DNA of 61,213 bases, counting the filler. It is 4 parts of 4 records of this genome, joined end to end, with 100 filler letters (N's around TTAATTAATTAA, not from the genome) between each part and the next. Parts side by side here need not be neighbours in the genome. Positions count along the whole stretch, not along the records: positions 28,348 to 43,748 come from SRR20825006_2916; 3 more parts are not named here. One strand, 5' to 3'. Position numbers and translations under genes: made by a program. The stretch's first letter is position 1. Every line of letters starts with the position of its first letter. The notes below the pieces were generated by a model. That model was given only the letters and a program-made list of their open reading frames with translations, did no database searches and had not been told where the DNA came from. Below, piece after piece: positions 14,112 to 43,848 of the stretch.

Positions 14112-14211
14112 NNNNNNNNNNNNNNNNNNNNNNNNNNNNNNNNNNNNNNNNNNNNTTAATTAATTAANNNNNNNNNNNNNNNNNNNNNNNNNNNNNNNNN
14201 NNNNNNNNNNN
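14112..14211. other. Artificial contig linker
   Basis: N44-TTAATTAATTAA-N44, which has stops in all six frames; the adjacent sigma gene is truncated. Confidence 0.99.
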
Positions 14212-28247: not shown

Positions 28248-28347
28248 NNNNNNNNNNNNNNNNNNNNNNNNNNNNNNNNNNNNNNNNNNNNTTAATTAAT
28301 TAANNNNNNNNNNNNNNNNNNNNNNNNNNNNNNNNNNNNNNNNNNNN
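28248..28347. other. Artificial contig linker
   Basis: N44-TTAATTAATTAA-N44, with an abrupt AT-rich to GC-rich switch. Confidence 0.99.
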
Positions 28348-28570
28348 TTCTACTCTGTTTCCCACGACAGCCCCGTCTGGAGGCAGGCCGATGCAACGAA
28401 CGAATGAGCCACATTGCCAATCACCATCGTTCCACCCAACAAGGTTCGAAGGGTCGACACAGCAATCCCCCGAGCAGAAGGTTGCTGGCAATTGACAGTT
28501 ATCAGACTTCGGCGAGCTCATTGTCTCGTACTTGCTGGGGAGCCCAATCGCCCGCTGCGATTGACTGTGA

Positions 28571-28897
28571 TCACGACAACTCTTTTTTCAGCTTTGCGTC
28601 GGCAGCGTTCATTTCGTCCTGCGACTTGAATTCGACCACGATCGTCTTCAGCCGAGAGGTTTCGCCGGCGACGATCGCAACACGGCCCTTGCTGACGCGC
28701 AACCATTTCGCGAGCGACGCGATGACCGCTTTGTTGGCTTTGCCATCTTCCGGCACCGTGTGAACCGACACTTTCAAAGCCCCATCGTGCAGTCCACCCA
28801 CCGAAGCCTTCTTGGCTTTGGGAGTGACCCGCACGCGAAACCTCCATGTCAAGCCATCGCATTGTCGATCCAGTCCTGCTCCTGGCTCGCTCATCAC
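28571..28897 (-). CDS. DUF167/YggU-family protein
   Basis: RVRVTPKAKK, PEDGKAN and GETSRLK; ATGA overlap with the putA stop. Confidence 0.88.
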   Translation of the reverse strand: MMSEPGAGLDRQCDGLTWRFRVRVTPKAKKASVGGLHDGALKVSVHTVPEDGKANKAVIASLAKWLRVSKGRVAIVAGETSRLKTIVVEFKSQDEMNAADAKLKKELS

Positions 28898-31800
28898 TCA
28901 GCATCAGTTGGCTGTGACAACTTGGCTGATCGACGTCCAAGGTTGCCATAGCGGTGATAATCATGCGAGATCGATTGCTCGTTCAGGTATCGCAAGCATT
29001 CAATGCGTCCGTGATCCACCACTGGTTCATCAATCACCGTGATGAAGCGGCGTCCGCAAGCTCGACGAATCGATTCTTTGGCGTGGGTCAGCGTACGCAT
29101 TCGGCTAACACCACCGCCTTCGATTCGCTCGATCAACTGCTCCACGGATTCTTCGATGGGATCAATCAATCCGGGCAACCAATCGGCGGTGGTTTCCAGC
29201 ATCGCCGACTTCGACCGATCCAGCTCAGGTGACAGTGAAAGCGTGAACTGGGTGCCCACGCAAACCGCCGCCGAGATCGCCACGATCGCATCCACAATGT
29301 CGTCGTCCTTCTCGATTCGAATCGTCATGCCATCGACGGATCGATAACGACGAATATTGTCTTGGCCGGTCAATCGATAGGTGTCGTGTTCCAACGCGAA
29401 ATCAGTTGCATTGGCGATTTCTTGCGACGTGATCGCTCGTTCGATTCGGAACTTCTGACCATCGCCCAACATCTCGTCGGAATAGCGACCACGCTCGATC
29501 CAATCCCGCATCCGATCGAGCTGGTCGTGCGAAGCTTCGACTTCGTCCGTCGGTGGTGTCCAATCGCTCGCATGTGTGACCTTGGAAAGGGCAAGCACAT
29601 AATTTGGACCGCCGGCTTTGATACCGGGACCGTAGGCGGACAGACCGACTCCGCCAAACGGTTGCCGCAACACGATCGCGCCGGTCGTTGGACGATTGAT
29701 GTAGAGGTTGCCAGCAGGAATGGATTCTCGCCACAATTTGATTTCTCGATCGTCCAAACTTTCCAGTCCGCTGGTCAACCCATAACCGGTCGAACGCACG
29801 ATTTCGATCGCTTCTTCCAGTCGACCAAATCGCATCACACCCATCACCGGTCCAAACAACTCGGTCGTATGAGTGAAGCTGCCCGGTTGCACGTCCCATT
29901 TGACGCCCGGCCGGTACAACGTTGGGTTGCCATCGACATGCTCGGACATCACCAACCAAGATTCGCCACCCTCGAGTTCTTGCAAACCACGTCGCAGTTT
30001 GTCGGTTGGCGGATCGACCAACGGGGTCACGCGGGTATGCAAATCCCAAGCGGATCCCACCGGCAGACTGCGAACCGCGTCGGCCAAAATTTCTCGGAAT
30101 TCCGGATCGTCGAACACTTCGTTTTCGAGCAACAACAGCGACGTGGCACTGCATTTTTGTCCGCTGTGTCCAAACGCCGAATGCAACACGTGTTTGATCG
30201 CCAGGTCACGGTCCGCCATCGCGGTCACGACCGTCACGTTCTTACCGCCTGTTTCGGCCAGCAAGTGAAGATCCGGCCGCACGTCCAGCATTCGCTTTGC
30301 GGTTGATGTACCGCCGGTCAGAATGACGGTGTCAACGATTGGATTCTTGACCAACCACTCTTCCGCAACTTCGTCGTCACAGATCACAAACTGCAAAGCA
30401 TCACGCGGAACACCTGCGTCCCAGAATGCCTGGCACATCAGCCACGCCGGCAACAAAGTTTGCATCGATGGTTTGACAACCACCGGGTTTCCCGCTGCGA
30501 TCGCGGCTGCAATTCCGCCACATGCGATCGCCAAAGGAAAGTTCCATGGCGTGATGACGGCGACGACGCCGCGTGGTTCACACCGGATCCCATCGCACTC
30601 GTCCCAAGCCTTCATGGTCAGCGGATAGAACTCCAGAAAGTCAATTGCTTCGCTGACTTCTGGATCCGCCTCAGCAACCGTTTTGCCTGCTCCGGCCACC
30701 ATGCTGCCGATCCAATCCCCACGTCTTTCGCGAGCCAATTGCGCGACCGAACGTAGGACTGAATAACGCTCATCAACAGATAGATCCGCCGCCCAGGTCG
30801 ATTCGCTGGATGCTCTGACGGCGGATTCAACTGCGGGCGAAGTTGCTTTCTTGTAACGACAAGTCACGACGCCGGGACGCGAGACATCGTCGGTGGTGAA
30901 CCATTCCGCTGAAACGCGATCGTCTCCGTCCAGCGAATCCACGTCGGGCAAACCAACCAGCACCGGCGTCACACGAGTTGCCTGCTCGTCACAAAGTGGC
31001 TTCCAACGATCCAGTGTTTCTTGTGCCCACTTCGAATTGTGAGGCAGCGACCAATCGGTATCGGGTTCATTCACGAACTGCGTCCAATGCTCCGCCGCGG
31101 GCGGCTGCACGGGAGTCTGGTATCGATTCTGGTTTCGTCGAGGCTGCACCGAAACCGTTTCGCAATCCATCAACGCGTCCTTGAACCGTCCCGCCAACAA
31201 TTCAAAGTCGGGTGAGTCCGGCTGCAATCGATACGCATGACGCAGGAAGTTCTCAGCGCCGGTGTTTTCATCCAAGCGGCGAATCAAATACGTGATCGCA
31301 TGCAAGAAATCTGATTTTTTGCAAGCTGGAGCGTACAACAACATCGCCGCGTCTCGTTCCGTCAACGCCCGGCGTTGATGATTGGCCATGCCCTCCAGCA
31401 TTTCGAACTGGACCGAATCCGAGGCTCCCGATCGCTGAGTCCAAATCATCGCCAGCGCCACATCAAACAAGTTGTGCGACGCGACACCAACGCGAATGTT
31501 CCCATCCGCAGCAGCACTGATTAGCTCCCTGAGCATGCGTTTGAAGTTCGCATCCGTATCGTGCTTGTTCGTGTACGGAGCCAGCGGCCATCCACCAACG
31601 GACGCGTGCACGCGTTCCATTTCGAGGTTTGCACCTTTGACCAAACGGATCGTCAACGGAGCACCGCCACCGGCGACTCGCTTCGTCGACCACTCAATCA
31701 GGTCTCGCATGACTAAACAAGAATCTGGCACGTAGGCTTGCAACGCGATCCCAGCTTGAATGGAATCCAGATCATCGCGTTCCAATGTCTCACGAAGCAC

Positions 31801-32607
31801 GTCCGCGGTCAGATACAAATCGCTGTACTCTTCCATGTCCAAGTACACGAACTTGTCTTTGGCCTTGGAACCATCGTCCATGTGGTTGGCGTTGCGATAC
31901 AAACGCTCCAAGCGATCGGCGACCATGCGAATCGTGTGTTCTCGTGCCAGCGGAGACACTTGGCTGTAGAGCGTGGTGAGTTTGACCGAGATGCAACGCA
32001 CCTCGGGCATGCGAAGCAATTCGTAGAACGACTGCATCCGCTTTCGCGTTTCGTCGTCACCCAGCAACGCTTCGCCGAGCAGGTTCACATTCATCGCCAC
32101 GCCGTGACGCTGGCGAGATGCCAAGTGCGGAGTCAAAAGATCCGGTTCTGCTGGCAAAATCACATTGGCCGTTTCACGGCGCATCTTTTCTTTGACCAAC
32201 GGCACCGCCACGCCGGGCAGATACTCGCCAAAGGATTGGAACCCTTTCAGCATGGCCTGTTCGACCGGACTGAAGAATCGCGGAATGCCTTGCAGATCCA
32301 ACAAGTGGGTCATCTGGTCCGCCACACGGGCCGGCGTGTGCGTGCGAAACGCCTGGTCGGTCATCTCGACCAAAGTCGCTTTGTCGGCATCGTGGCCGAT
32401 CATTCGGTCCAGTTCCGATTGCTGGCGACGTTCCTGGGGTGTCTGCAATGCACGCGACTCTCGCAAAAGATCAGCCGCCATCTCAATCGCGGCAGCGGCA
32501 TCTTGCTCGGGGTCAAACCCCTTCCATGTTGACGACAAGGTTGAGTCGGGCTGATTCAAGACAAGATCCTTCACAAGAGATTCTGCGGAAACGAAGATCG
32601 AGGACAC
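28894..32607 (-). CDS. putA: Bifunctional proline dehydrogenase / P5C dehydrogenase (no evident N-terminal RHH)
   Basis: NLLGEA, LDMEE, RLVKGA, ASHN and YLIRRLDEN (PRODH); PWNFPLAI, ETGGKN, GQKCS, ELFGP and QPFGG (ALDH). Confidence 0.95.
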   Translation of the reverse strand: MSSIFVSAESLVKDLVLNQPDSTLSSTWKGFDPEQDAAAAIEMAADLLRESRALQTPQERRQQSELDRMIGHDADKATLVEMTDQAFRTHTPARVADQMTHLLDLQGIPRFFSPVEQAMLKGFQSFGEYLPGVAVPLVKEKMRRETANVILPAEPDLLTPHLASRQRHGVAMNVNLLGEALLGDDETRKRMQSFYELLRMPEVRCISVKLTTLYSQVSPLAREHTIRMVADRLERLYRNANHMDDGSKAKDKFVYLDMEEYSDLYLTADVLRETLERDDLDSIQAGIALQAYVPDSCLVMRDLIEWSTKRVAGGGAPLTIRLVKGANLEMERVHASVGGWPLAPYTNKHDTDANFKRMLRELISAAADGNIRVGVASHNLFDVALAMIWTQRSGASDSVQFEMLEGMANHQRRALTERDAAMLLYAPACKKSDFLHAITYLIRRLDENTGAENFLRHAYRLQPDSPDFELLAGRFKDALMDCETVSVQPRRNQNRYQTPVQPPAAEHWTQFVNEPDTDWSLPHNSKWAQETLDRWKPLCDEQATRVTPVLVGLPDVDSLDGDDRVSAEWFTTDDVSRPGVVTCRYKKATSPAVESAVRASSESTWAADLSVDERYSVLRSVAQLARERRGDWIGSMVAGAGKTVAEADPEVSEAIDFLEFYPLTMKAWDECDGIRCEPRGVVAVITPWNFPLAIACGGIAAAIAAGNPVVVKPSMQTLLPAWLMCQAFWDAGVPRDALQFVICDDEVAEEWLVKNPIVDTVILTGGTSTAKRMLDVRPDLHLLAETGGKNVTVVTAMADRDLAIKHVLHSAFGHSGQKCSATSLLLLENEVFDDPEFREILADAVRSLPVGSAWDLHTRVTPLVDPPTDKLRRGLQELEGGESWLVMSEHVDGNPTLYRPGVKWDVQPGSFTHTTELFGPVMGVMRFGRLEEAIEIVRSTGYGLTSGLESLDDREIKLWRESIPAGNLYINRPTTGAIVLRQPFGGVGLSAYGPGIKAGGPNYVLALSKVTHASDWTPPTDEVEASHDQLDRMRDWIERGRYSDEMLGDGQKFRIERAITSQEIANATDFALEHDTYRLTGQDNIRRYRSVDGMTIRIEKDDDIVDAIVAISAAVCVGTQFTLSLSPELDRSKSAMLETTADWLPGLIDPIEESVEQLIERIEGGGVSRMRTLTHAKESIRRACGRRFITVIDEPVVDHGRIECLRYLNEQSISHDYHRYGNLGRRSAKLSQPTDAE

Positions 32608-32713
32608 GAGGTTCGCCGATCAACCATTGACGGCTAAACTTTCGCAACTTGCAACCGCCTGTTTTCACAACGATTTCTTTATGGCATTCCGCCGCGACCC
32701 AAAGACGCCTGCA

Positions 32714-33106
32714 ATGACGACTGATTTGCCGCAACATGTGTTCCGTTTACGAGTTCGCTACGACGAATGTGATCCGATGGGACTGGTTCATCATTCAAAT
32801 TACTTGCGATATTTCGAAATCGGACGAACCGAATTCCTTCGATCGTCGGGGGGCCGGTACCGTGAAGTGGAAGAAGCGGGGCTGTATGTCGTGGTGGTCC
32901 ACATCGATTGTCGCTATCGTGCCTCCGCACGTTATGATGATGAAATTGATATCGTGACGAGAATCGCCAAAATCACCGCGGCCAAAATCATCCATGAATA
33001 TGAGATCTGCCGCGGAGACGAGGTGCTCGTGCAAGCGACCGTGACCTTGGCGGTGATAGATAAGAACGGTCGATTGCAACGTGTTCCTGAAGCATTGTTG
33101 ACGTAA
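32714..33106 (+). CDS. YbgC/FadM-family acyl-CoA thioesterase
   Basis: RVRYDECDPMGLVHHSNYLRYFEIGR hotdog motif; start uncertain (32681 or 32714). Confidence 0.88.
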   Translation: MTTDLPQHVFRLRVRYDECDPMGLVHHSNYLRYFEIGRTEFLRSSGGRYREVEEAGLYVVVVHIDCRYRASARYDDEIDIVTRIAKITAAKIIHEYEICRGDEVLVQATVTLAVIDKNGRLQRVPEALLT

Positions 33107-33141
33107 AGCTCTTTGACTCTTTCCTTCCTGGTGCCCTCCCA

Positions 33142-34191
33142 ATGCGTCCTGACCAACCTACCCGATCGCTCAGCAACCGCCGCCAATTCCTTCGTCGCCT
33201 TGGAATCACATCCGCCGTCGGCTACGCCGCTTATTTGGCTCATCAAGTGAGTCCTTCACCACTGATCGTCAATGGTTTGCCGGGGCAGGGCAGGGCACTT
33301 TGGGCCGAAGAACTCAGCGAATCTAAAACGGAAACCAGCACTGGTTATCTCAAGCAATCTCTGAAAGCCGGCATGATTCGGGCCGGGAAATCCGACGCAG
33401 CCAACCCTTGGATCGAACGGTTTCGAATTGCCAAGGATGCCGGCTTTGAAGGAGTCGAACCCAACACGTCACCCGGTATGGATGTCAAAGCGATGGTCGC
33501 CGCCTCGGCGGAAACCGGTTTGACGATTGACGGAACCGTCGGCGGATATCACTGGGGTACAACGCACACCAGCCCCGATGCAGCGACTCGCAAGAAAGCA
33601 CAGCAATTGCTCGAGGAGTCGCTGCAACAAACCGCCGACTTGGGCGCCAACACGTTCCTGATCGTTCCCGGCCACGGCAAAGACGGCACGGCCGAAGAAG
33701 TCCGCCAACGTGCTTTCGAAGCTCTTGATCGCGCCGTTCCCCTGGCCGAGAAGCTTGGCGTCAAAATCTTGATCGAGAACGTTTGGAATCACTTCCTCTA
33801 CGACCACGGTGGGGACGAAAAGCAATCGGCTCAACCACTCGCAGACTTCGTTGACTCGTTCAACACATCGTGGATTGGCGTCCAATTCGATCTTGGCAAC
33901 CACTGGAAGTACGGCGATGTGGCCGAGTGGGTGAAGACATTGGGGCATCGCATCGGAAAGCTTGACATCAAGGGATTCTCGCGCGAACAGGGACGCTTCA
34001 CCGACGTCACCGAAGGCGACATCGATTGGGCAAGCGTCCGAAAGGCACTTGCTGAGATTAAGTTCGAAGGCTGGGTCGCGGCGGAAGTCGGTGGCGGCGA
34101 TGCTGAACGACTGAAGAAGATTCACGGCCAAATTGAAACCGCTTTGCACTGCTCAAAATCGCTTTCACAAATCAAGGCGGAGACCGCGTGA
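33142..34191 (+). CDS. Sugar-phosphate isomerase/epimerase (xylose isomerase-like TIM barrel) with Tat signal
   Basis: NRRQFL twin-arginine motif; GFEGVE, IENVWN, FDLGN, DIK, GDIDW and AEV metal-site motifs. Confidence 0.85.
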   Translation: MRPDQPTRSLSNRRQFLRRLGITSAVGYAAYLAHQVSPSPLIVNGLPGQGRALWAEELSESKTETSTGYLKQSLKAGMIRAGKSDAANPWIERFRIAKDAGFEGVEPNTSPGMDVKAMVAASAETGLTIDGTVGGYHWGTTHTSPDAATRKKAQQLLEESLQQTADLGANTFLIVPGHGKDGTAEEVRQRAFEALDRAVPLAEKLGVKILIENVWNHFLYDHGGDEKQSAQPLADFVDSFNTSWIGVQFDLGNHWKYGDVAEWVKTLGHRIGKLDIKGFSREQGRFTDVTEGDIDWASVRKALAEIKFEGWVAAEVGGGDAERLKKIHGQIETALHCSKSLSQIKAETA

Positions 34192-35165
34192 CGGCGTCGC
34201 AACCACTGGACCAAGCCGACCAAGACTCTGAATCATCCTCCGCAGGTTCATCCGCCGCGGAGACAGAACACGTCAGCGTGATGCCAAATGAGATCGTGCA
34301 ATGGGTTCGAGAAATCAACCCGACCACGATCATCGATGGGACCTACGGTGGCGGTGGGCACACACGTTTATTGGCTGACGTTTTGGCCGGCGCGGGTTCC
34401 GACTCAGACACTCCACGTGTGATTGCGATTGATCGTGATCCCGCCGTTGTTCGTCGGGATGAACAAAAGTCTTGGATCAAAGATGATCCGCGAATCGAGC
34501 TGTTCCTGGGCAGCTACGAAAGCTCGCCCAAGGCACTCGATGCGTTGGACCTGACGCACGCGGATGCGTTGGTGCTGGACCTTGGTCTTTCCAGTGATCA
34601 ACTTGCCGACAGGAATCGCGGCTTCACATTCACGATTGATGACGCGGAATTGGATCTTCGTTTTGATCCAGAAAACGGAGTACCAGCGTACCGGTGGCTG
34701 CAACAACACAGCGAAAAAGAAATCGCCGACGCAATCTATCAATTTGGTGAAGAACGATTCAGTCGCCGCATCGCCAAACAAATTTTCTTGCGGGCTCGCG
34801 AGCGCAACCCTGTCACCAAAGTCGGTGAGTTGGTGGAGATCTGTCGCCGCTGTGTGCCTCGTTCACGCAACCATGACATTCATCCCGCGACGCGAACGTT
34901 CCAGGCGCTGAGGATCGCGGTCAATGATGAGCTCGGCGGATTGACCCGAACGCTTCAATCCGCTCCCGACTGGATCGCTCCCGGTGGTCGAGTCGCGGTG
35001 ATCAGCTTTCACTCCTTGGAAGACCGCATCGTCAAAAATGCTTTCCGTGAGGATCACCGATGGGAAATCCTGACGAAGAAACCGCTGCGTCCAACCGACG
35101 AAGAGGTCCAAGCGAATCCTCGCAGCCGCAGCGCGAAACTACGCGTCGCCAAACGAGTGGAGTGA
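34188..35165 (+). CDS. rsmH: 16S rRNA m4C1402 methyltransferase
   Basis: HVSVM, DGTYGGGGH, DLGLSS, HPATRTFQALRIAVN, SFHSLEDR and NPRSRSAKLR; GTGA overlap. Confidence 0.96.
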   Translation: MTASQPLDQADQDSESSSAGSSAAETEHVSVMPNEIVQWVREINPTTIIDGTYGGGGHTRLLADVLAGAGSDSDTPRVIAIDRDPAVVRRDEQKSWIKDDPRIELFLGSYESSPKALDALDLTHADALVLDLGLSSDQLADRNRGFTFTIDDAELDLRFDPENGVPAYRWLQQHSEKEIADAIYQFGEERFSRRIAKQIFLRARERNPVTKVGELVEICRRCVPRSRNHDIHPATRTFQALRIAVNDELGGLTRTLQSAPDWIAPGGRVAVISFHSLEDRIVKNAFREDHRWEILTKKPLRPTDEEVQANPRSRSAKLRVAKRVE

Positions 35166-35248
35166 ACACGGCAACCCGTAGCACGTTGGTCCCGAACGTG
35201 AATCCGCTCGTCTCGGTGAAGGACTATCGAGCAACAGTTCGAAATGCC

Positions 35249-36223
35249 TCATTCGCCTCGAGAAATTAGCCAACCTTCCGGCGGTGGTGGTAGGGCGAAT
35301 GCGTTGTGATAGTCTCGCTGGCGCATCTCGATCCAAAACAATGTCTCTTCGGCAAGTGACTTGTTCACCGGCGAGAACGCCGACCAGCGAACCGCCTCGG
35401 TCACTCGCTCTTTTGCCACGGTGAAGTCTTGTCGTGCTGCCGCGGCGATTGACGCGTTGATGAGTGCTGCCGCATTGCGTGGGTGCGATTCCAACACTTG
35501 CTGCCAACGATGCTCCGCCGCCGGCCAATTGCTTGATCGGGCCAATTCGTTTCCACGTCGAATCGCTCGACTGCCTGGAGACAATCTCGGCGAAGCCAAT
35601 GTCACTTGTTGCCGATCAACGCTGGCGGCGAGCAGTCGTTTGGTTTCCAGAACAACCGCTCGGCGTGTTCGTTCAGCGACATCGGGAATATTCAACAGAT
35701 GCGGATACCGTTGCGAGATCAGCGCCTCGTCGACTGAAACCGGCATCCCAGCCGATTCTGCATCGACCTGCAGTCCAGTCAATCGCCAAGACAGACTGAC
35801 TTTATCGTCGCGATCCTCGTGACCGGTAGCCTGCAGAATTTCACCATGCAGCAGATAACGCAACCCTTCGCGTCGAGCGGCCGCGCTGACTGCCATATCG
35901 TTGGGTTCCTCTTCGAAACCTGAAACGAGGCGAATGTTCGCTGGGCTTTCCAGTTGCTCCGCCGCGATCAATCGCCAACGCGAGGGCTGGTCCGCTAGCA
36001 GAGCATCCTCGATCGGTTCGGCCCACTCGTCAGGCCCTGAGATGCCCATGAAAGCGACTCCAGCGGGCTCGACGGCCAGCTGTGGCGGTTGCCAAACGTG
36101 GACTGGGGCGGTGGTCTTGCAGCCAGTCAGCAAAATCCAGCAGGCGCACACCCCTAACCAAGCACCTCGGGACACCCAAGGTGAGGGCCAGCGTCGCTCG
36201 ATGGGAATCGCCGAGCCTAGCAT
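35249..36223 (-). CDS. Hypothetical lipoprotein with C-terminal TPR-like helices
   Basis: Likely start ATG 36223 gives a signal peptide with lipobox LTGC; the longer listed ORF would overlap the opposite gene. Confidence 0.65.
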   Translation of the reverse strand: MLGSAIPIERRWPSPWVSRGAWLGVCACWILLTGCKTTAPVHVWQPPQLAVEPAGVAFMGISGPDEWAEPIEDALLADQPSRWRLIAAEQLESPANIRLVSGFEEEPNDMAVSAAARREGLRYLLHGEILQATGHEDRDDKVSLSWRLTGLQVDAESAGMPVSVDEALISQRYPHLLNIPDVAERTRRAVVLETKRLLAASVDRQQVTLASPRLSPGSRAIRRGNELARSSNWPAAEHRWQQVLESHPRNAAALINASIAAAARQDFTVAKERVTEAVRWSAFSPVNKSLAEETLFWIEMRQRDYHNAFALPPPPEGWLISRGE

Positions 36224-36383
36224 GCAGAAAATTTGCTTCCTTTCGAACACGAACCGGATCCCCGCGGAAAGGGACCCGAAGCGGACGGTAGCCAAACAGA
36301 GCGTCTCGCGGCAAGTTATCTTGTGTGAACTAGACTTAGAAACTGTCCGTGAAACTCGTTCTCGCCCCACGTTGATTTTTTGT

Positions 36384-38255
36384 ATGGCTTCGTTGTTCGT
36401 CATTCGAGGACGTGACCAAGGAAAACACTTCCAGCTCGCACCGACGGTCACGCGACTGGGACGTGAATCCAGCAACAATGTGCAGTTACTCGACAACGAG
36501 GCTTCGCGAAGCCACGCCGAAATTCGCGGTGACGGGACGGGGCGTCGTTACGAACTGGTCGACCTAGGCAGCAGTAACGGCACACTCGTCAACAATCGCA
36601 AGATCACACGGCACGTACTGACCAGCGGCGACCGAGTGGAGATCGGTTCGACGCTGCTGATTTTCACCGGCACCGGCAACGTGTCGGCTCTCGATGCGGC
36701 TCACGGCGTCGACATCGTTCGGCAAGTCCGCGGGGGCGATGCCAGCAACATTGTTTCTTCGTTGTCCCGCGAAGGCGTCGTCTCGCCATACACACCAGGC
36801 GGCTCTTCGTCCAACGCACCGCCGATCGACAAACCCGCGACTTCACCGACGACTCTGCCGCCACCAATCCCGCCACCTGTCGAAAATCCCCCGACGCCAT
36901 CTGAGGACGAAAGAGTCGATTCCTCGGCTTCGGGTTCTGATTCACTTGGTCAGTTCCACGGACCGCCTGTCATCGGTCGACTCGATGCAGACCGTTCACT
37001 GGAAGTCATGTACTTGACCGCCATCGCGGTGGGACGAACCGATGACTTGGATGAGGTGCTGGACCGTGTTCTCAAGCTAGTCTTTGACTGGGTCGAAGCC
37101 GATCGCGGATGCATCATGCTTCGCGACCCGGAATCCAAACGACTGACCCCGGCCGCTCGCTGCGATCGCGAATCAGCGACCGGTGGAACAAAACAAAACC
37201 CTTCATCCAAAACACAAGACCGTATCCAAATCAGCCATACGATTTTGGATTACGTGCTGCAACACAAACAGGGCGTTCGCACAAACGACGCACTCGATGA
37301 CGAACGATTCGATTCCGCCGCTTCGATTGTCCAAGGCGGCGTTCGCGAAGCCCTTTGCGTTCCCTTGCAGGGCCGATACGAAATCGTTGGCATGTTGTAT
37401 GTCGACACTTACACCACACCAGGAGAACTGGTCCGCAAGGGTGGCGCGACGCGATTCCATGACGAACACCTACGGCTGATCACCGCCGTCGGACACCAAG
37501 CCGCACTCGCGATCGAAGACACGTTTTATTACTCAGCACTCCTGCAAGGCGAACGACTGGCCGCGATGGGCCAAACGATCGCGACGCTTTCACATCACAT
37601 CAAGAACATCCTTCAAGGCGTTCGAGGCGGCAGCTATCTGATCGAATCAGGTCTGCAAAAAGACGACACCGATGCGATCCGCCGGGGATGGTCCATCGTT
37701 GATCGCAACCAAGAACGAATCAGCAATCTCGTGCTCGACATGCTGACGTTCTCAAAGGAACGCGAACCAGATCTGCAGGAAGGCAATCTGAATGAAGTTG
37801 TCAGCGACGTGGTCGAACTCATGCAGAGCAGGGCAGGGCAGAGCGAGATTGAACTGGTTTCCGACCTGGATGCCACATTGCCAATCGCCACCTTTGATAG
37901 CGAAGCGATTCACCGAGCCGTCCTGAACTTGGTCACCAATGCAATCGATGCCGCCACGAAAACAGTTTTGGTCAAAACGTTTTACGATGCGGCGCAAGGC
38001 TGGATCGTCGATGTGGAAGACGATGGCGAAGGTGTTCCCGAAGAAGACCGTGAGCAAATCTTCTCGCTCTTTGAGTCCAAGAAAGGTGCACGAGGCACGG
38101 GCCTGGGTTTGCCCGTCAGCGCAAAAGTGCTGCGTGAACACGGAGGCACGTTGACCGTCGACGATGCGGCAAGTGGAGGAGCCCGTTTCCGAATGATCTT
38201 GCCGGCCACCGGCACCGATATCAACGAACTCTCACGCAGCGAAACCCAAGCGTAG
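36384..38255 (+). CDS. FHA-GAF sensor histidine kinase
   Basis: FHA motifs LGR, SRSH and SSNGT; Pro-rich linker; GAF (ALCVPL...GMLYVD); H-box SHHIKN, N-box NLVTNAIDA, DDGEG and GTGLGL. Start at ATG 36384. Confidence 0.9.
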   Translation: MASLFVIRGRDQGKHFQLAPTVTRLGRESSNNVQLLDNEASRSHAEIRGDGTGRRYELVDLGSSNGTLVNNRKITRHVLTSGDRVEIGSTLLIFTGTGNVSALDAAHGVDIVRQVRGGDASNIVSSLSREGVVSPYTPGGSSSNAPPIDKPATSPTTLPPPIPPPVENPPTPSEDERVDSSASGSDSLGQFHGPPVIGRLDADRSLEVMYLTAIAVGRTDDLDEVLDRVLKLVFDWVEADRGCIMLRDPESKRLTPAARCDRESATGGTKQNPSSKTQDRIQISHTILDYVLQHKQGVRTNDALDDERFDSAASIVQGGVREALCVPLQGRYEIVGMLYVDTYTTPGELVRKGGATRFHDEHLRLITAVGHQAALAIEDTFYYSALLQGERLAAMGQTIATLSHHIKNILQGVRGGSYLIESGLQKDDTDAIRRGWSIVDRNQERISNLVLDMLTFSKEREPDLQEGNLNEVVSDVVELMQSRAGQSEIELVSDLDATLPIATFDSEAIHRAVLNLVTNAIDAATKTVLVKTFYDAAQGWIVDVEDDGEGVPEEDREQIFSLFESKKGARGTGLGLPVSAKVLREHGGTLTVDDAASGGARFRMILPATGTDINELSRSETQA

Positions 38256-38495
38256 GGGCAGTTAGAACGGCGTGAAGGACATTCGAAGACTGATGATCCC
38301 CCCAATTCGATTGTCCACACCCGGGCGAGCCTTTTCATCGGGGAATTGAGAGAACGACTTCCGCTCCTTGCTTCCAAAAGCAACACGCGGATGGTGCAAT
38401 TCATCAGTTCAGGCTTCGTTCAACACCTCGTTGGGTGCCATTGCAGGCTGCCGACACATGAGCCCACCATTCCGATTCCAGCACCAGTGTTCGAT

Positions 38496-38524
38496 TTGGC
38501 AATTGAATACGGGAAAGTTACACT
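38496..38524 (+). promoter_or_regulatory. Sigma70-type promoter for the small protein/protease pair
   Basis: TTGGCA-N17-TACACT (5/6 and 4/6 matches to TTGACA and TATAAT); GGAG RBS at 38553-38556. Confidence 0.6.
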
Positions 38525-38563
38525 GCTGTGGGCCGATTGGACTCAACACGCCGGAGCCGAACG

Positions 38564-38845
38564 ATGAAAACACGACGATTATCACGCGAAGAGATCGGTA
38601 GTCGTGGCTCTGAGATCTATGAAACGCAATTGAAAAAACTGCTTGAACAAGGCTCGCGAGACCAGTTCGTTGCGATTGATGTAGAAACCGGTGACTATGA
38701 AGTGGCGGATGAAGCTCATGCTGCTGGAACACGGTTGCGCCAGCGTCGTTCCGATCCACAGGTCTTCATCGCCAAGGTCGGCCATTCAGCTGCATTCCAC
38801 GCCCTGAGGCTTACTGGCGGTGACGGGATCGAGCGGAATGATTGA
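38564..38845 (+). CDS. Small uncharacterised protein (DUF5678-like), 93 aa
   Basis: RBS plus ATG; GSEIYE, FVAIDVETGDYEVAD and FIAKVG patterns recalled from small proteins encoded next to aspartic proteases. Confidence 0.75.
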   Translation: MKTRRLSREEIGSRGSEIYETQLKKLLEQGSRDQFVAIDVETGDYEVADEAHAAGTRLRQRRSDPQVFIAKVGHSAAFHALRLTGGDGIERND

Positions 38846-39209
38846 AGGCAGGATCGACAATAACGTTGAAGCCTTCGTTGACTTAGAGATTCAACTTGAC
38901 GACACGACCCACACGATCGCTTTCTTGGTTGATACTGGTTTCAATGGATTCCTCTCGATACCATTCCGCTTGGTTCACCAACTCGGCTTGCCATTGTCGG
39001 ATGTTCAGCAGGGCGTGACCGCCGACGGACGCTCAAGCTTCTTCGACACGGTTGAACTGACCGTGATCTGGCATGGAAATCCGCTGACCGTTCAAGCCCA
39101 AGTACTCGACGAACCCTTGCTCGGAACGAGGCTTCTGCGCGGTTCCAAAATAGAAGCCGCTTGGATTCAGGGTGGGATGTTTCAAATTGAATTGATTTTA
39201 GATGGCTGA
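38838..39209 (+). CDS. Clan AA (retropepsin-like) aspartic protease, AF_0612-like, 123 aa
   Basis: FLVDTGF catalytic motif, TADG flap and PLLG closing motif; 8-nt overlap with the upstream ORF. Confidence 0.85.
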   Translation: MIEGRIDNNVEAFVDLEIQLDDTTHTIAFLVDTGFNGFLSIPFRLVHQLGLPLSDVQQGVTADGRSSFFDTVELTVIWHGNPLTVQAQVLDEPLLGTRLLRGSKIEAAWIQGGMFQIELILDG

Positions 39210-39669
39210 TCTTTTGTGATCGTTGTTGCAGAGCTTCACAGAATGGAAGTCAAAAAACAGGAGTGGAACAACAATTCGGCATTCACCCTCAAACCTTTTT
39301 CGATTCCAGCGCTTGGTTTGATGCGACTCTTAAACCCGTTCGGACCAGCGAGCTGGATCGAATCGATCGCTCGACCTAGGACAACAATCAAGGCAAGGGT
39401 GAGCGGATAATGATCCATCCAAGGGAAATGCGAAAGCAATCAGTCAAGACGATGAATGAACTTGGATTGGTTTGCCTTTTAGGCTGAGCGATCAGGGCAA
39501 GATGCTTTTCCTGTACGAGCCTACGTGATTCGAAAGCGTCGTCATGCACTTAGTTGAATCTCGAGCAAAGAGGCATGGGGTAACGTAGTTCTTAATACCT
39601 AGGACTATTGTCATACGTTGATTCGCTGACGTTTCATGAGCGAGACATTCCGGTCAAGTTGAGATGCCG

Positions 39670-40515
39670 TCACTTAAACTCCAACGAGTCAAAGAACTCC
39701 GATGGCTTGTCCAATTCACTTTCGTTGGATCGTGGCTTGCGTTGGCCGCCAACCAGATCTTTGATTTCGGAGTACGGCGAGTACACCGCGACCACAAGAT
39801 TTCGATTGTGAACGTAGATTTCGCAGTCCGACCCTTCGATCGCTCCCACACCTGATTGCATGGTCCCCGCCATTCCCTCCACACCAGATCGGGTAACGGG
39901 ACGAGGATTCGACAGACGGATTCTCATGTCTCGCAACAATTCCGCGATGGGAATGTTCGGATCGATGACAGCCGGCAAATCAGCCACCACTAGTGAATAC
40001 TGAGATCCGGTTTCTTTCCTCCGGCCGGTGAGCTCATGAACGGTCGTGCCTGGAAACTGCTGCGACTTGTCTCTCCGGTCTTCACCCGCAGGCATGCTGA
40101 CGGTGTAGCCCTTGTACGTCACCGATGTCCAACCGCTATGACGCGACCCCAAATACCCAACGGCAAAGATCCCGCCGGCGCACAACAAGATGCACAACAG
40201 GCCAAGCCCCGCGATCGTGCTGATGATCTTCACAGCAGCCTTGGATCCACCACCTCGCTTTTTCGCGGGCTTGGGCGGTTGGTAAACGGTGACCGGTCCC
40301 GAGGGACGAAAGACTGAGCTCGGCGGTGCCGCTGCCGAAGAACCTAAACTGGGCAGGTTATCAAACAGATTTTCTTCGGGAACATGGACCGTCACAGGCG
40401 CCCGAACTGCAAGCATCAACTCACACTTTGGGCACTTCACTTTTCCTGCGCCCATCGTCGCGGGAATCTGCAAAGTGGTTTTGCATTGAGGACACACAAT
40501 CCGACGTCCGGCCAT
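39670..40515 (-). CDS. Zinc-ribbon bitopic membrane protein, hypothetical
   Basis: CPQC-x16-CPKC N-terminus, Pro/Ser-rich linker, one TM helix and a C-terminal extracytoplasmic domain. Confidence 0.75.
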   Translation of the reverse strand: MAGRRIVCPQCKTTLQIPATMGAGKVKCPKCELMLAVRAPVTVHVPEENLFDNLPSLGSSAAAPPSSVFRPSGPVTVYQPPKPAKKRGGGSKAAVKIISTIAGLGLLCILLCAGGIFAVGYLGSRHSGWTSVTYKGYTVSMPAGEDRRDKSQQFPGTTVHELTGRRKETGSQYSLVVADLPAVIDPNIPIAELLRDMRIRLSNPRPVTRSGVEGMAGTMQSGVGAIEGSDCEIYVHNRNLVVAVYSPYSEIKDLVGGQRKPRSNESELDKPSEFFDSLEFK

Positions 40516-40675
40516 CGAAACTCCCGCGGTTCATCATCGAGCAATGAGCGGGAAAAAGTGTCACATACTTTTGATGCAAAGCACGCAGCAGGCCGTTCCG
40601 GCAAAAAGCACCTGACACTTTCTCCCAACCGTTCTTCGACAGTGATGCAACAGTTGGATTGGCCCGTGTGCCAGT

Positions 40676-41668
40676 TTACCCCAGCGCGACGGCGAGTGCT
40701 TCTCGAACGATGGGCAGAACTCGGTCTTGGACCTCATCCAACGTGCCTTCCAAAAAGGCTCCCGCGGCAGCTTTGTGGCCACCGCCGCCAAATTGACGAG
40801 CGACCTCGTTGCAATCCAAGCTGCAACGACTCCGAAAGCTCAATTTGAAACCACCTCGCACTTGCCCGACGAAGATTACACCGGCTTGGGTGCCACGAAT
40901 GGCCAACGTCAAATTGATCGCGTCCTCGGTGTCATTGGGTTGCGCGCCACACAACTCAAAGTCTTCTTTGTTGACCGATGTATAAACCAACGCCCCATCC
41001 ATCTCGGTGGTCGTTCGAGACAGAATCAGCCCGCGAAGTTTCAGCCGGCCGATCGTGTCACGTTCATACAGATCGCCGTAGACTTCGCTGGGAACGACAC
41101 CTGCATCGATCAAACGAGCGATCGTGCGGTATGTGTCCGATGTAACGCTCGGGAACCGGAACCATCCCGTGTCGGTCGCGATGGCAGCAAACAAAGGCGT
41201 CGCCATCGTTCGCGTCAGTGGAACATTCAGTGCATCGGCGGCTTGAACGACCAAATGACCTGTCGCTTCGGATTGGTAGTCCTTGTACATCCTCGCACCC
41301 AACTCATCTTCACCCACGTGGTGATCCAGCACCATCTTGTCGGCGCGAGACGCACGGATGACATCGCCCATGTCCCCAAGCTGAGCCCATGCGCTGGTGT
41401 CGAGAATCATAATGCAGTCCGCTTTCACATCTTCGGCCTCCACTGAATCGCCCAACACCTCGATGTTGCCAGCGGGATCCAAGAACGACAAAGCCGGCGG
41501 GGTCCGGTGAGCATTGATGATGCGAACATCCTTCCCAACCGCTCGCAGGACTTCTGCCATTCCCAATTCGCTGCCTAATGCATCGCAGTCGGGACGAATA
41601 TGGCTGACCAAAACGAACGATTGGTAATGTTGAATTTGATCAACAAATGCTTTCCAGTTAACTCCCAC
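40676..41668 (-). CDS. nrnA: DHH-family phosphoesterase (NrnA-like oligoribonuclease/pAp phosphatase)
   Basis: HIRPDCDALGS, ILD, LDHH, TDTG, SFRS and GGGHKAAAG. Confidence 0.9.
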   Translation of the reverse strand: MGVNWKAFVDQIQHYQSFVLVSHIRPDCDALGSELGMAEVLRAVGKDVRIINAHRTPPALSFLDPAGNIEVLGDSVEAEDVKADCIMILDTSAWAQLGDMGDVIRASRADKMVLDHHVGEDELGARMYKDYQSEATGHLVVQAADALNVPLTRTMATPLFAAIATDTGWFRFPSVTSDTYRTIARLIDAGVVPSEVYGDLYERDTIGRLKLRGLILSRTTTEMDGALVYTSVNKEDFELCGAQPNDTEDAINLTLAIRGTQAGVIFVGQVRGGFKLSFRSRCSLDCNEVARQFGGGGHKAAAGAFLEGTLDEVQDRVLPIVREALAVALG

Positions 41669-41683
41669 GAGCGGGTCTTTCTT

Positions 41684-42655
41684 TCAAGGTCGAGATTGAA
41701 GAGATGAAACCGTCTCACGAACGGTTTGCAAATCGATTTGCAATTGTTGTTTTAGGGCGGACGCGTCGGCGAACTTGATCACGCCCCGAACTTGACTCAC
41801 CAAAGTCAGCGACAACGATTTCCCATAAAGATCGCCATCATAGTCGAGCAAGTGGGCTTCGATCTTTGTCTCTTGGCGTTCGTTGAACGTTGGGTTCGGA
41901 CCAATGTGAACCGCGGCGGGATGATTGGTCGGTCCATCGCATTCATCTCCGCACGCCAGCGCCGCGTAAACACCGTGCTCAGGAAGCAAGGTCGTCACGC
42001 CGCCCAAATTCGCGGTGGGAAATCCCAATGTACGGCCGCGTTGTTCACCGGTCGTCACCACACCGGTCAGACGGTAGCGACTGCCGAGCATTTGATTCGC
42101 CAAGACGATATCACCTGATGCGATTGCTTCGCGAATGCGTGAACTGCTGACCATGCGTTCGTCGCGAACCGATGGAACCACGATCTCGACGTCAATTTGA
42201 CGCTCCGCAGCCAACTCTTTCAAACGAGTTGTGTTGCCGGCACGATCGCGTCCAAAGAAAAAATTCGGGCCTTCGATGATCGCCTTGGCTGACAACTGTT
42301 CCACAATCAATCGCTGGAAGAATTCTTCGGCGGTTTGATTCAAAAAATCGCGAGTGGCCTCGCAAACCAGCAAATGATCGATCCCCGAACCGGACATCAA
42401 CTCCGCCCGACGCGACAAACTGGTCAAACTGGGTGGTGCCCCGTGTGGCCGCAGCACCGATGCTGGGTGCGGATCCATCACGATTGCGATTGCTTTACCG
42501 CCAACCCGCTGAGCATGCCATCGGACACGTTCGAGCAAAGCACGGTGTCCCAAATGAACCCCATCAAAATTGCCGATACTGACCGCACCACCCTGAAGCG
42601 ATAGATGCAGGTCGGAGTCGCCCGCAAGGTCGCTCAAGTGGATCAGGGAAGTCAT
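41684..42655 (-). CDS. ribF: Bifunctional riboflavin kinase/FAD synthetase
   Basis: GNFDGVHLGH, VSSSRIR, GRTLGFPTAN, GVY and EAHLLD. Confidence 0.96.
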   Translation of the reverse strand: MTSLIHLSDLAGDSDLHLSLQGGAVSIGNFDGVHLGHRALLERVRWHAQRVGGKAIAIVMDPHPASVLRPHGAPPSLTSLSRRAELMSGSGIDHLLVCEATRDFLNQTAEEFFQRLIVEQLSAKAIIEGPNFFFGRDRAGNTTRLKELAAERQIDVEIVVPSVRDERMVSSSRIREAIASGDIVLANQMLGSRYRLTGVVTTGEQRGRTLGFPTANLGGVTTLLPEHGVYAALACGDECDGPTNHPAAVHIGPNPTFNERQETKIEAHLLDYDGDLYGKSLSLTLVSQVRGVIKFADASALKQQLQIDLQTVRETVSSLQSRP

Positions 42656-42773
42656 TCAAACGGAGCAGGGCAGGGGAGAGGCAAAAAGAAACGAACAGAT
42701 TGGCCTCAGTATGCCTGATTCACCTCGATTTCGTCAGATCCCATGGCGGGGCGCAATCTTTGATTCAGTGGCT

Positions 42774-43688
42774 TCAGTCCGCAGGCTGAGTCATTTCATC
42801 CGCGACCAAGGCCAACGCATCCAGTGCATGCAGAGAAGTCATGCCCGCGTGACTCCATCGGGACGCCGCCTCGTCACCACAGCGACCATGAATCCATACA
42901 CCCAACTTCGCCGCATCGGGACCGCTCAAACCTTGCCCAAGCAACGATGTCACGATGCCGGTCAACACGTCGCCGCAGCCCGCCGTGGCCATCCCTGGAT
43001 TGCCCGTTGTGTTCTGCCAAACCTGCTTTCCTCCGTCCCCATTTTGATACGCAACGTGTGACGGTCCACCTTTTACAACGATGGTCAAACCCAATCGACA
43101 CGCCAACTCTGCCGCGGCTTCGACTTGGGCATCGACATCCTTCGCAGACGCTCCCGTCAAACGCTGCAGCTCACCAGGATGTGGCGTCAGAACGCACGCG
43201 GCATCGGCCTTGCTTCTTTCGAACCGGCCATCTGAAAACCAATCGTTTTGAGCGATGATGTTCAACGCATCCGCATCCAAAACCAACGGCAGATCCTTTT
43301 TCGCGAGCAGCCCCTCCACGATCGTCGCCCCACCTGGTCCCGTCGTCATGCCGGGTCCACAACCGATGGCCGCCTGAGCTGACAATCGATCCTTCAACGA
43401 CTGCCACGCCGGATCGGCAAACTTCTCCCCGTCATCGCCCAGCCCAATTGTCATCAGCGCCGGATGAAAACCGGCTACACAATCCAGAATGCAATCGGGA
43501 ACCGCTGCCGCCACCAAACCCGATCCCGTATGCAGTGCAGCGATCGATGACAACGCGATCGAGCCCGCCATGCCGCGTGAGCCACCGATCAACAAAACGC
43601 GACCAAAATTGCCTTTGTGAGCCGATGCTTCGCGATGCGGAATCCGCAGCGGCGGCGGGCTGGTAGACTGAGTCTCAATGGATGGCAT
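42774..43688 (-). CDS. nnrD: ADP-dependent NAD(P)H-hydrate dehydratase (stand-alone)
   Basis: [30 protein letters not shown] and [10 protein letters not shown]. Confidence 0.93.
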
Positions 43689-43748
43689 TTCAGGCTCGCA
43701 GGTTGATTGTTTGTCACACTAAGCAGGTCGGCAGGAATGATCGGGTAG

Positions 43749-43848
43749 NNNNNNNNNNNNNNNNNNNNNNNNNNNNNNNNNNNNNNNNNNNNTTAATTAA
43801 TTAANNNNNNNNNNNNNNNNNNNNNNNNNNNNNNNNNNNNNNNNNNNN
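43749..43848. other. Artificial contig linker
   Basis: N44-TTAATTAATTAA-N44. Confidence 0.99.

Follow-up and report, generated by a model that had tools for sequence, protein, structure and literature searches.

A widespread two-gene module pairing a stand-alone retropepsin-like protease with a small partner predicted to bind its flap

Stand-alone retropepsins are widespread in bacteria and almost uncharacterised. We analysed a 61,213-nucleotide stretch of DNA, filler included (the window), in which an initial annotation had singled out two small overlapping genes, the second encoding a 123-amino-acid retropepsin-like protease (P0001) and the first a 93-amino-acid partner protein (P0002). The pair is a genuine and widespread two-gene module, so far uncharacterised, in which the effector is unusual and the partner novel. 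A full-text literature search, which reached few subscription journals, found no functional description of it, in agreement with the annotation, which knew of no characterised function.

The protease belongs to a described family, TIGR03698 (clan_AA_DTGF), by its score, its DTGF motif, its length of about 120 amino acids and its lack of a membrane segment. That model covers the protease alone; the upstream partner and the behaviour of the two genes as a module fall outside any description that we found, and a literature search on TIGR03698 returned nothing. We take AF_0612 to be a label for these stand-alone clan AA proteases of TIGR03698. APRc (RC1339) of Rickettsia conorii (PDB 5c9f and 5c9b) has the same bacterial retropepsin-like fold as P0001, but the two share no sequence similarity by phmmer or profile search. 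APRc is a membrane-associated protein of a pathogen and is not known to have such a partner.

A functional comparison is offered by RimB, a retropepsin-like protease of the cytoplasm that acts together with, and binds, the product of a gene in its own operon, RimK (bioRxiv 10.1101/2025.03.18.643919). RimK is an ATP-grasp ligase, the substrate consists of poly-glutamate tails, and the RloA proteases of Pseudomonas are secreted. The pair shares with RimB-RimK a cytoplasmic retropepsin and a co-encoded partner, and differs in having no adjacent ATP-grasp gene. No gene for a RimK-like ATP-grasp ligase adjoined the pair in the window, and none occurred among the 145 nearest neighbours of related loci, where the one ATP-grasp match was PurD (GARS), at locus L043. 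Type III CRISPR loci of Sulfolobales carry a stand-alone retropepsin-domain protein of about 100 amino acids (Asp_prot, or PEPT_D in PADLOC) (PMC3973734). Like P0001, these proteins are small stand-alone domains, and they sit in accessory, defence-linked loci; the CRISPR context is absent at the pair.

With type II toxin–antitoxin (TA) systems the pair shares small overlapping co-directional genes, predicted binding, patchy mobile spread, tandem paralogues and plasmid copies, and its pattern of decay favours loss of the second gene. It differs from them in that the first gene product has no recognisable DNA-binding domain and an acidic aspartic protease stands in the place of the putative toxin; a search of the TA literature found no aspartic protease as a toxin. 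The partner itself has a remote likeness to Pfam DUF5678, confined to its beta1-beta2-alpha2 core: the DUF5678 model spans 49 positions, and the partner family adds an N-terminal helix and a beta3 strand.

The gene pair, its linkage and its spread

The features of the pair are as follows.

38553-38556, + strand: GGAG, Shine-Dalgarno-like, 7 nucleotides 5' of the partner ATG
38564-38845, + strand: partner gene (P0002), 93 amino acids, ATG start
38762-38773, + strand: partner VFIA, residues 67-70, strand beta3, predicted to pair with the flap-base strand of the protease
38777-38842, + strand: C-terminal tail of the partner (residues 72-93), predicted to be disordered; the nearest relatives do not conserve it
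38838-38845, + strand: 8-nucleotide overlap of the two open reading frames (ORFs), ATGATTGA, read from the sequence
38838-39209, + strand: protease gene (P0001), 123 amino acids, retropepsin-like, TIGR03698, ATG start
38931-38942, + strand: catalytic motif D32-T33-G34-F35 (LVDTGF is residues 30-35), with the D32 codon at 38931-38933
38994-39050, + strand: flap hairpin, residues 53-71, with a predicted partner-binding surface at 53-58 and 68-71 (structure and complex models)
39018-39029, + strand: flap tip TADG, residues 61-64, read from the sequence
39114-39125, + strand: P-L-L-G, residues 93-96, the hydrophobic-hydrophobic-Gly motif of retropepsins, read from the sequence

Both ORFs, their overlap and the ribosome-binding site had been annotated and were confirmed. 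The 8-nucleotide overlap implies translational coupling of partner and protease. Because the first methionine of the protease was invariant in two homologue alignments, the start at 38838 was preferred over an upstream GTG at 38820. As had been proposed, no transmembrane segment or signal-like N-terminus was evident in either protein from hydropathy and N-terminal charge (maximum Kyte-Doolittle 19-residue mean: protease 1.17, partner 0.85; both N-termini charged).

Related loci came from a pattern scan that took a single genome for each species (185,579 species genomes) and confirmed at least 491 loci, of which we analysed the best 80. Going by record titles, these best 80 comprised 33 from Cyanobacteria, 19-20 from Chloroflexota and 18 from Planctomycetota, with 2 each from Latescibacterota, Gemmatimonadota and Armatimonadota, 1 from Acidimicrobiia, 1 from 'Deltaproteobacteria' and 1 unassigned. 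Three of the 80 lay at contig ends (<75 nucleotides of upstream DNA) and were left out of the linkage count. A partner homologue was found directly upstream of the protease in 76 of the 77 testable loci, across eight lineages; the one locus without a partner (L028) is a fragment. Linkage was detected with a close-homologue profile in 70 of the 77, and by six-frame search and inspection in L002, L033, L036, L048, L065 and L067. The usual junction in these relatives is a 4-nucleotide ATGA overlap. In the reverse direction, the protease adjoined the partner in 5 of 5 partner-matching plasmids.

There was no conserved third gene: 449 neighbouring ORFs fell into 391 clusters, the larger of which proved to be antisense shadows or further copies of partner and protease. 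The claim of a self-contained, linked pair was thus upheld. In line with co-inheritance, pairwise identity matrices of partner and protease were correlated (r = 0.83, a value reached by 0 of 999 Mantel permutations and to which shared ancestry contributes), with mean pairwise identities of 0.47 and 0.45, respectively. In 66 intact pairs, D32, G34, F35, G37, G64, W78, L94 and G96 of the protease were conserved in 66/66, and T33 and D63 in 65/66.

The genomic behaviour of the pair supports TA-like habits: contexts vary, copies lie in tandem or on plasmids, and some have decayed; paralogues and patchiness had both been proposed as checks. Tandem arrays within 8 kb held three pairs in L026, L063 and L070 and two in L016, L041 and L044, with some copies decayed, in Chamaesiphon, Alkalinema, Synechococcales and a Dehalococcoidia genome. 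Protease matches were present on nine cyanobacterial plasmids, and copies of the pair were found on conjugative or mobilizable ones. Nucleotide homology to planctomycete loci ends at the ORF boundaries. The 145 nearest neighbours included 8 TA components, 3 transposase or integrase genes and 2 defence genes, the rest being housekeeping or of unknown function, figures that come without a baseline; GmrSD, AIPR and TA genes sometimes adjoin the pair. In the Nostoc sp. PCC 7120 plasmid pCC7120alpha (L081), a nuclease A inhibitor gene stands beside a non-specific endonuclease gene at 5191-6363, about 2 kb from the pair, and is another effector-inhibitor pair nearby.

Among approximately 90 protease units in the 80 loci, an intact partner accompanied a broken or missing protease in 7 cases (L006, L012, L044-2, L072, L063-1, L070-1 and the orphan partner of L016), an intact protease accompanied a partner with an in-frame stop in 1 (L036), and both genes were degraded in 5. 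The two proteins are also fused naturally: in P0117 (313 amino acids) a TIGR03698-like protease (35.3 bits) comes after two partner domains. We also observed an in-frame partner-protease remnant at L067:3797-4291. Together, the comparisons of homologous sequences firmly support the reading that the two genes form one unit, that this unit moves between genomes, and that the protease active site is under selection.

Predicted structures and complex

P0001 scored 100.7 bits against NCBIfam TIGR03698 (cut-off 57.35, E = 5.4e-29), aligned over all profile positions (1-107/107). Its Pfam matches were below the gathering thresholds (Asp_protease_2, PF13650, 22.6 v 24.3; gag-asp_proteas, PF13975, 20.4 v 28.2), and by these scores the likeness is one of clan level only. 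The predicted structure (pLDDT, the local confidence score, 94.5) is a single-lobe retropepsin fold with a flap hairpin, and the annotated motifs LVDTGF, TADG and PLLG are in place. The assignment to clan AA was correct. The best fold match in the PDB was Rickettsia APRc (5c9f; template modelling (TM) score 0.67, E = 2e-4, 19% identity), followed by the protease of xenotropic murine leukaemia virus-related virus; the other top matches were the proteases of equine infectious anaemia virus, feline immunodeficiency virus and human immunodeficiency virus, and Ddi1. No solved structure related to P0001 was detectable by phmmer or profile search of PDB sequences. The protein is very acidic (isoelectric point 4.3), and a search for longer fused relatives found none, which is weak evidence. 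P0001 should act as a cytoplasmic single-domain homodimer.

The partner was modelled with a pLDDT of 82.3 as alpha1(8-28)-beta1(35-39)-beta2(45-48)-alpha2(51-61)-beta3(67-71), followed by a disordered tail; its isoelectric point is near neutral. It had no family in Pfam, NCBIfam, PHROGs or PADLOC, and 28 close homologues searched against Pfam (E ≤ 10) gave no meaningful match, the single UTP6_C match (E = 0.17) being at chance level. In the PDB it had no match by sequence or profile, and the best match by fold had E = 1.3. The insignificant fold matches were nearly all ATP-grasp enzymes or beta-lactamases, probably by chance, and an ATP-grasp fold (TTL, the biotin carboxylase domain of ACC, Ddl) was rejected (E > 1, probability ≤ 0.16), attractive though it was in view of the pairing of the retropepsin RimB with the ATP-grasp enzyme RimK. 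All 30 matches in the ESM Atlas were 'hypothetical protein' clusters without a common Pfam family, and RefSeq calls the partner 'hypothetical protein' at the two plasmid loci that we opened (pCC7120alpha and a Tolypothrix plasmid).

The partner family is large: a profile search of representatives clustered at 50% identity matched 2,644 clusters at E ≤ 1e-3 and 581 at the stricter E ≤ 1e-10, and two to three tandem partner domains occur in 34 of the 150 best-listed relatives. One protein, P0103 (259 amino acids), has three partner domains in one chain. Two other architectures were each seen in a single case and are possible gene-calling artefacts: P0239 (218 amino acids), which joins the partner domain to a WapI-like immunity-protein domain (27.3 bits v 27), and P0127 (123 amino acids), in which an AF2212-like segment (21.9 bits v 21.6) precedes the partner domain.

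The annotation had called the partner DUF5678-like, a likeness that is reached remotely, through relatives and fold, and not directly. Pfam DUF5678 (PF18929) matched neither P0002 nor any of the 28 close homologues (0/28). Among the 150 partner relatives, P0109 scored 23.5 bits against a cut-off of 23.2 and P0117 fell just below it at 20.4 bits, and the top two fold matches to P0002 in BFVD were Pandoravirus DUF5678 proteins (E = 0.044 and 0.05, TM score 0.50-0.55). 'DUF5678-like' is therefore a fair remote label for the partner, not a statement of membership.

The C-terminal tail of the partner, ALRLTGGDGIERND, had been proposed as a flexible segment that might occupy the protease cleft. Its disorder was borne out (pLDDT <50 at residues 79-89, and 43-53 over residues 81-93). 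Its place in the cleft was not: most Pirellulaceae homologues stop at residue 81, ending in AAFxAR, so the tail is lineage-specific, and the complex model did not place it confidently. Partners from Cyanobacteria and Chloroflexota have another conserved tail, RFGxRSLK or FGGSSLRR.

Modelling of a 2:2 complex, one of the checks that had been suggested, gave an ipSAE (interface confidence) score of 0.79, compared with 0.00 for the best of 3 controls, and so supports binding of partner and protease to each other. Of solved complexes, 51 of 78 attained this mark, as did 2 of 108 mismatched pairs; these counts apply only roughly here, the 2:2 job being unlike the calibration. Complex runs agreed in at least 43% of contacts, with a partner pLDDT of at least 76. 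Recall of the binding score from training is unlikely, because neither protein has a solved relative by sequence. The protease was present as two copies in this job, and the interface reported here is the partner's only. Confident contacts on the protease were residues 53-58, 68-71, 73 and 84-86, which form the base of the flap hairpin and the turn of the next hairpin, and on the partner residues 5, 8-9, 11-13, 16, 37, 50-52, 55 and 67-70. The lowest-error contacts joined protease residues 55-57 with partner beta3 (67-70), so that the predicted contact lies at the outer base of the flap.

Covariation between the two proteins was only weakly informative at an effective sequence number of 46; among the 50 top-scoring pairs that link them, 5 fell within the interface sets, compared with 0.98 expected. 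The highest scores linked the partner tail (78-81) with protease residues 61, 88, 97 and 115, for which a subfamily signal may be the explanation.

The window and the neighbourhood of the pair

Outside the pair, the window contains the following features.

14112-14211, 28248-28347 and 43749-43848: filler linkers N44-TTAATTAATTAA-N44, which divide the window into four pieces
35901-38255, + strand: sensor kinase ORF (FHA + GAF + HisKA + HATPase_c), upstream of the pair
38256-38563, no strand: upstream non-coding gap of 308 nucleotides, between the kinase gene and the pair
38496-38524, + strand: TTGGCA-N17-TACACT, sigma-70-like hexamers with 9/12 matches, putative promoter
39210-39669, no strand: downstream non-coding gap of 460 nucleotides, GC content about 0.47, before the convergent gene
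39670-40515, - strand: convergent ORF of 281 amino acids, downstream of the pair

The pair sits in the piece at 28348-43748, whose proteins are 99% identical to Rhodopirellula baltica entries. The GC content of the first two pieces is 0.31-0.40 and that of the last two about 0.55, and because of this difference the window must hold DNA of at least two organisms. The pair had been described as lying in a dense contig; that contig is its own piece only, the whole window being four joined pieces. Non-coding flanks of about 300 and 460 nucleotides were likewise described, and measured 308 and 460 nucleotides. The GC content of the pair is 0.515, that of the downstream gap 0.47 and that of the flanks 0.55-0.58; the gap at 39210-39669 could be an insertion remnant.

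An own sigma-70 promoter had also been claimed for the pair. The site is present, but a scan that does not cover planctomycete promoters found 1 sigma-70-like site against 1.1 ± 1.0 expected (50 shuffles); the site is at chance level and therefore provides no promoter evidence. A 9-nucleotide imperfect inverted repeat (38482-38490 / 38520-38528) flanks it, and the upstream inverted repeats were rejected as operators, being too short or imperfect. No nucleotide-level conservation with related planctomycete loci was seen in 38256-38563, and a terminator scan found nothing 3' of the pair. An Rfam scan of 38100-39800 gave one match, to Ms_IGR-2, which was sub-threshold (39280-39391, minus strand, 21.1 bits v 45).

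The kinase ORF is listed with a TTG start, and its N-terminus is probably over-extended. In the convergent ORF the N-terminus matches zinc ribbons only below threshold, and a hydrophobic stretch occupies the middle of the protein. Beyond this zinc-ribbon, membrane-type ORF lie genes for a DHH/DHHA1 phosphoesterase, RibF and an NAD(P)H-hydrate dehydratase, and farther upstream of the pair are PutA, a thioesterase and RsmH.

What the partner may do to the protease

Flap movement controls substrate entry and catalysis in retropepsins. Because the predicted binding is at the flap, we suggest that the partner gates the protease, and that it probably clamps and controls it. A self-contained, horizontally mobile two-gene operon encodes first a remotely DUF5678-like protein of 80-90 residues and then the coupled protease. 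In the mechanism that we propose, strand beta3 of the partner would lengthen the protease sheet where the flap hairpin has its outer base, with the N-terminal helix packed alongside. The partner would thereby gate the protease, most likely as an inhibitor akin to an antitoxin or immunity protein, and the free protease would be deleterious, or would be released only on a trigger. Restraint is suggested by the flap-base contact together with the TA-like genomic behaviour and the asymmetry of decay; inhibition, toxicity and a trigger are what we infer from them. Allosteric inhibition from outside the flap hairpin is, to our knowledge, not known from natural retropepsin inhibition in other systems. 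That the pair is a TA-like module, with a potentially harmful protease gated by its partner, is plausible, at somewhat short of an even chance. A narrower version, an undescribed TA or abortive-infection class in which a DUF5678-like flap clamp holds a cytoplasmic retropepsin-like protease inactive until the partner is lost or displaced, can be put forward only tentatively.

A number of observations weigh against this proposal. The complex job differs from those used in calibration, and the same test was also passed by 7 of 44 blind neighbouring pairs. The predicted interface leaves the catalytic cleft uncovered, which an activating or stabilising role would fit equally well. The decay asymmetry was not significant (length-adjusted binomial P(≥7/8) = 0.08, with 91 codons for the partner in most relatives and 123 for the protease) and may be inflated by assembly errors, which are commoner in the longer gene. 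Antitoxins usually evolve faster than toxins, whereas the well-folded partner is conserved to the same degree as the protease, and an acidic protease with a near-neutral partner is the reverse of the common TA charge pattern. Pfam, NCBIfam and PDB fold searches found no DNA-binding domain (helix-turn-helix, ribbon-helix-helix, AbrB or Phd) in the partner, and because none is recognisable the architecture is not that of a textbook type II TA system. The Pfam matches of the window proteins mark the neighbours of the pair as housekeeping or signalling genes, the window protein scan found no mobile-element genes in the 15-kb segment holding it, and housekeeping genes also make up most of the neighbours of related pairs. 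A phage collection gave no match to the pair, and PADLOC-DB 2.0 gave no significant match to a defence system, only weak generic protease similarity.

Several of these points would suit a partner that serves a non-toxic regulatory protease as an obligate positive subunit, be it in assembly, in stabilising the dimer or in recruiting substrates as an adaptor, the pair then being an accessory proteolytic device. Linkage in 76/77 loci is as expected of a two-subunit enzyme as of a TA pair, the partner's good fold and protease-like conservation and a contact on the flap base outside the cleft are in keeping with it, and the RimB-RimK system is a precedent for a cytoplasmic retropepsin with a partner (bioRxiv 10.1101/2025.03.18.643919). 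Varied contexts, tandem paralogues, plasmid copies and frequent decay would nevertheless be unusual for a housekeeping enzyme, and the survival of an intact partner without its protease in 7 cases, against 1 of the reverse, is unexpected if the partner has no role of its own; we regard this explanation as possible, if doubtful. Retroviral proteases excise themselves from polyproteins, and the partner might similarly be a substrate or a detached pro-region, whose tail or fusion linker is cut so that an active fragment is matured or released. The disorder of the tail, the conserved tails RFGxRSLK or FGGSSLRR of many non-planctomycete partners, and P0117, where the partner tail runs directly into the protease N-terminus, would be consistent with this, as would the top covariation at tail residues 78-81, of which a subfamily signal is a possible cause. 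The pair persists in Pirellulaceae, however, where most homologues have no tail, the complex model gives the tail no confident position, and a protease fusion occurs in just 1 of the 150 best partner relatives, to which the failure to find longer P0001 fusions adds weak evidence. We consider a substrate or pro-region unlikely.

A further reading is a role in anti-phage abortive infection, with the partner sensing a phage cue and freeing the protease to cleave host or phage proteins. In its favour, the pair is mobile, patchy and multicopy and at times stands beside GmrSD, AIPR and TA genes; PADLOC PEPT_D matched 1 of 57 proteases (E = 0.003), and small retropepsin-domain proteins accompany Sulfolobales type III CRISPR loci (PMC3973734). 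Against it, recognised defence genes were 2 of the 145 nearest neighbours, the neighbours in the window are housekeeping genes, and no PADLOC system was matched: similarity to PDLC01052 was weak (E = 0.016 for P0001; 23 of 57 proteases, best E = 7e-5), and 61 members of the partner family gave two marginal, unrelated matches (E = 0.019 and 0.033). We judge such a role to be distinctly unlikely. That the adjacency is incidental, or that one of the ORFs is not a gene, might be argued from the chance level of the promoter-like site, but is contradicted by the conservation of the pair: both families are large and conserved, both folds are confident, and adjacency is kept across eight lineages. We give that explanation next to no weight.

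New in this analysis are the linkage of the two genes, the lack of a third, the predicted binding, the conservation of the active site and a partner that matches nothing in Pfam, NCBIfam or the PDB and resembles DUF5678 only remotely. A stand-alone bacterial retropepsin is thereby placed in a two-protein system with a specific predicted interface. Should the partner inhibit the protease, it would represent a natural protein inhibitor directed at the flap of a retropepsin, of relevance to protease regulation generally, and aspartic proteases would join the repertoire of TA and defence effectors. If it is an activator or adaptor, the pair would constitute a cytoplasmic protease of a new, two-subunit kind. 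In both cases a large family of 'hypothetical proteins' gains a functional context.

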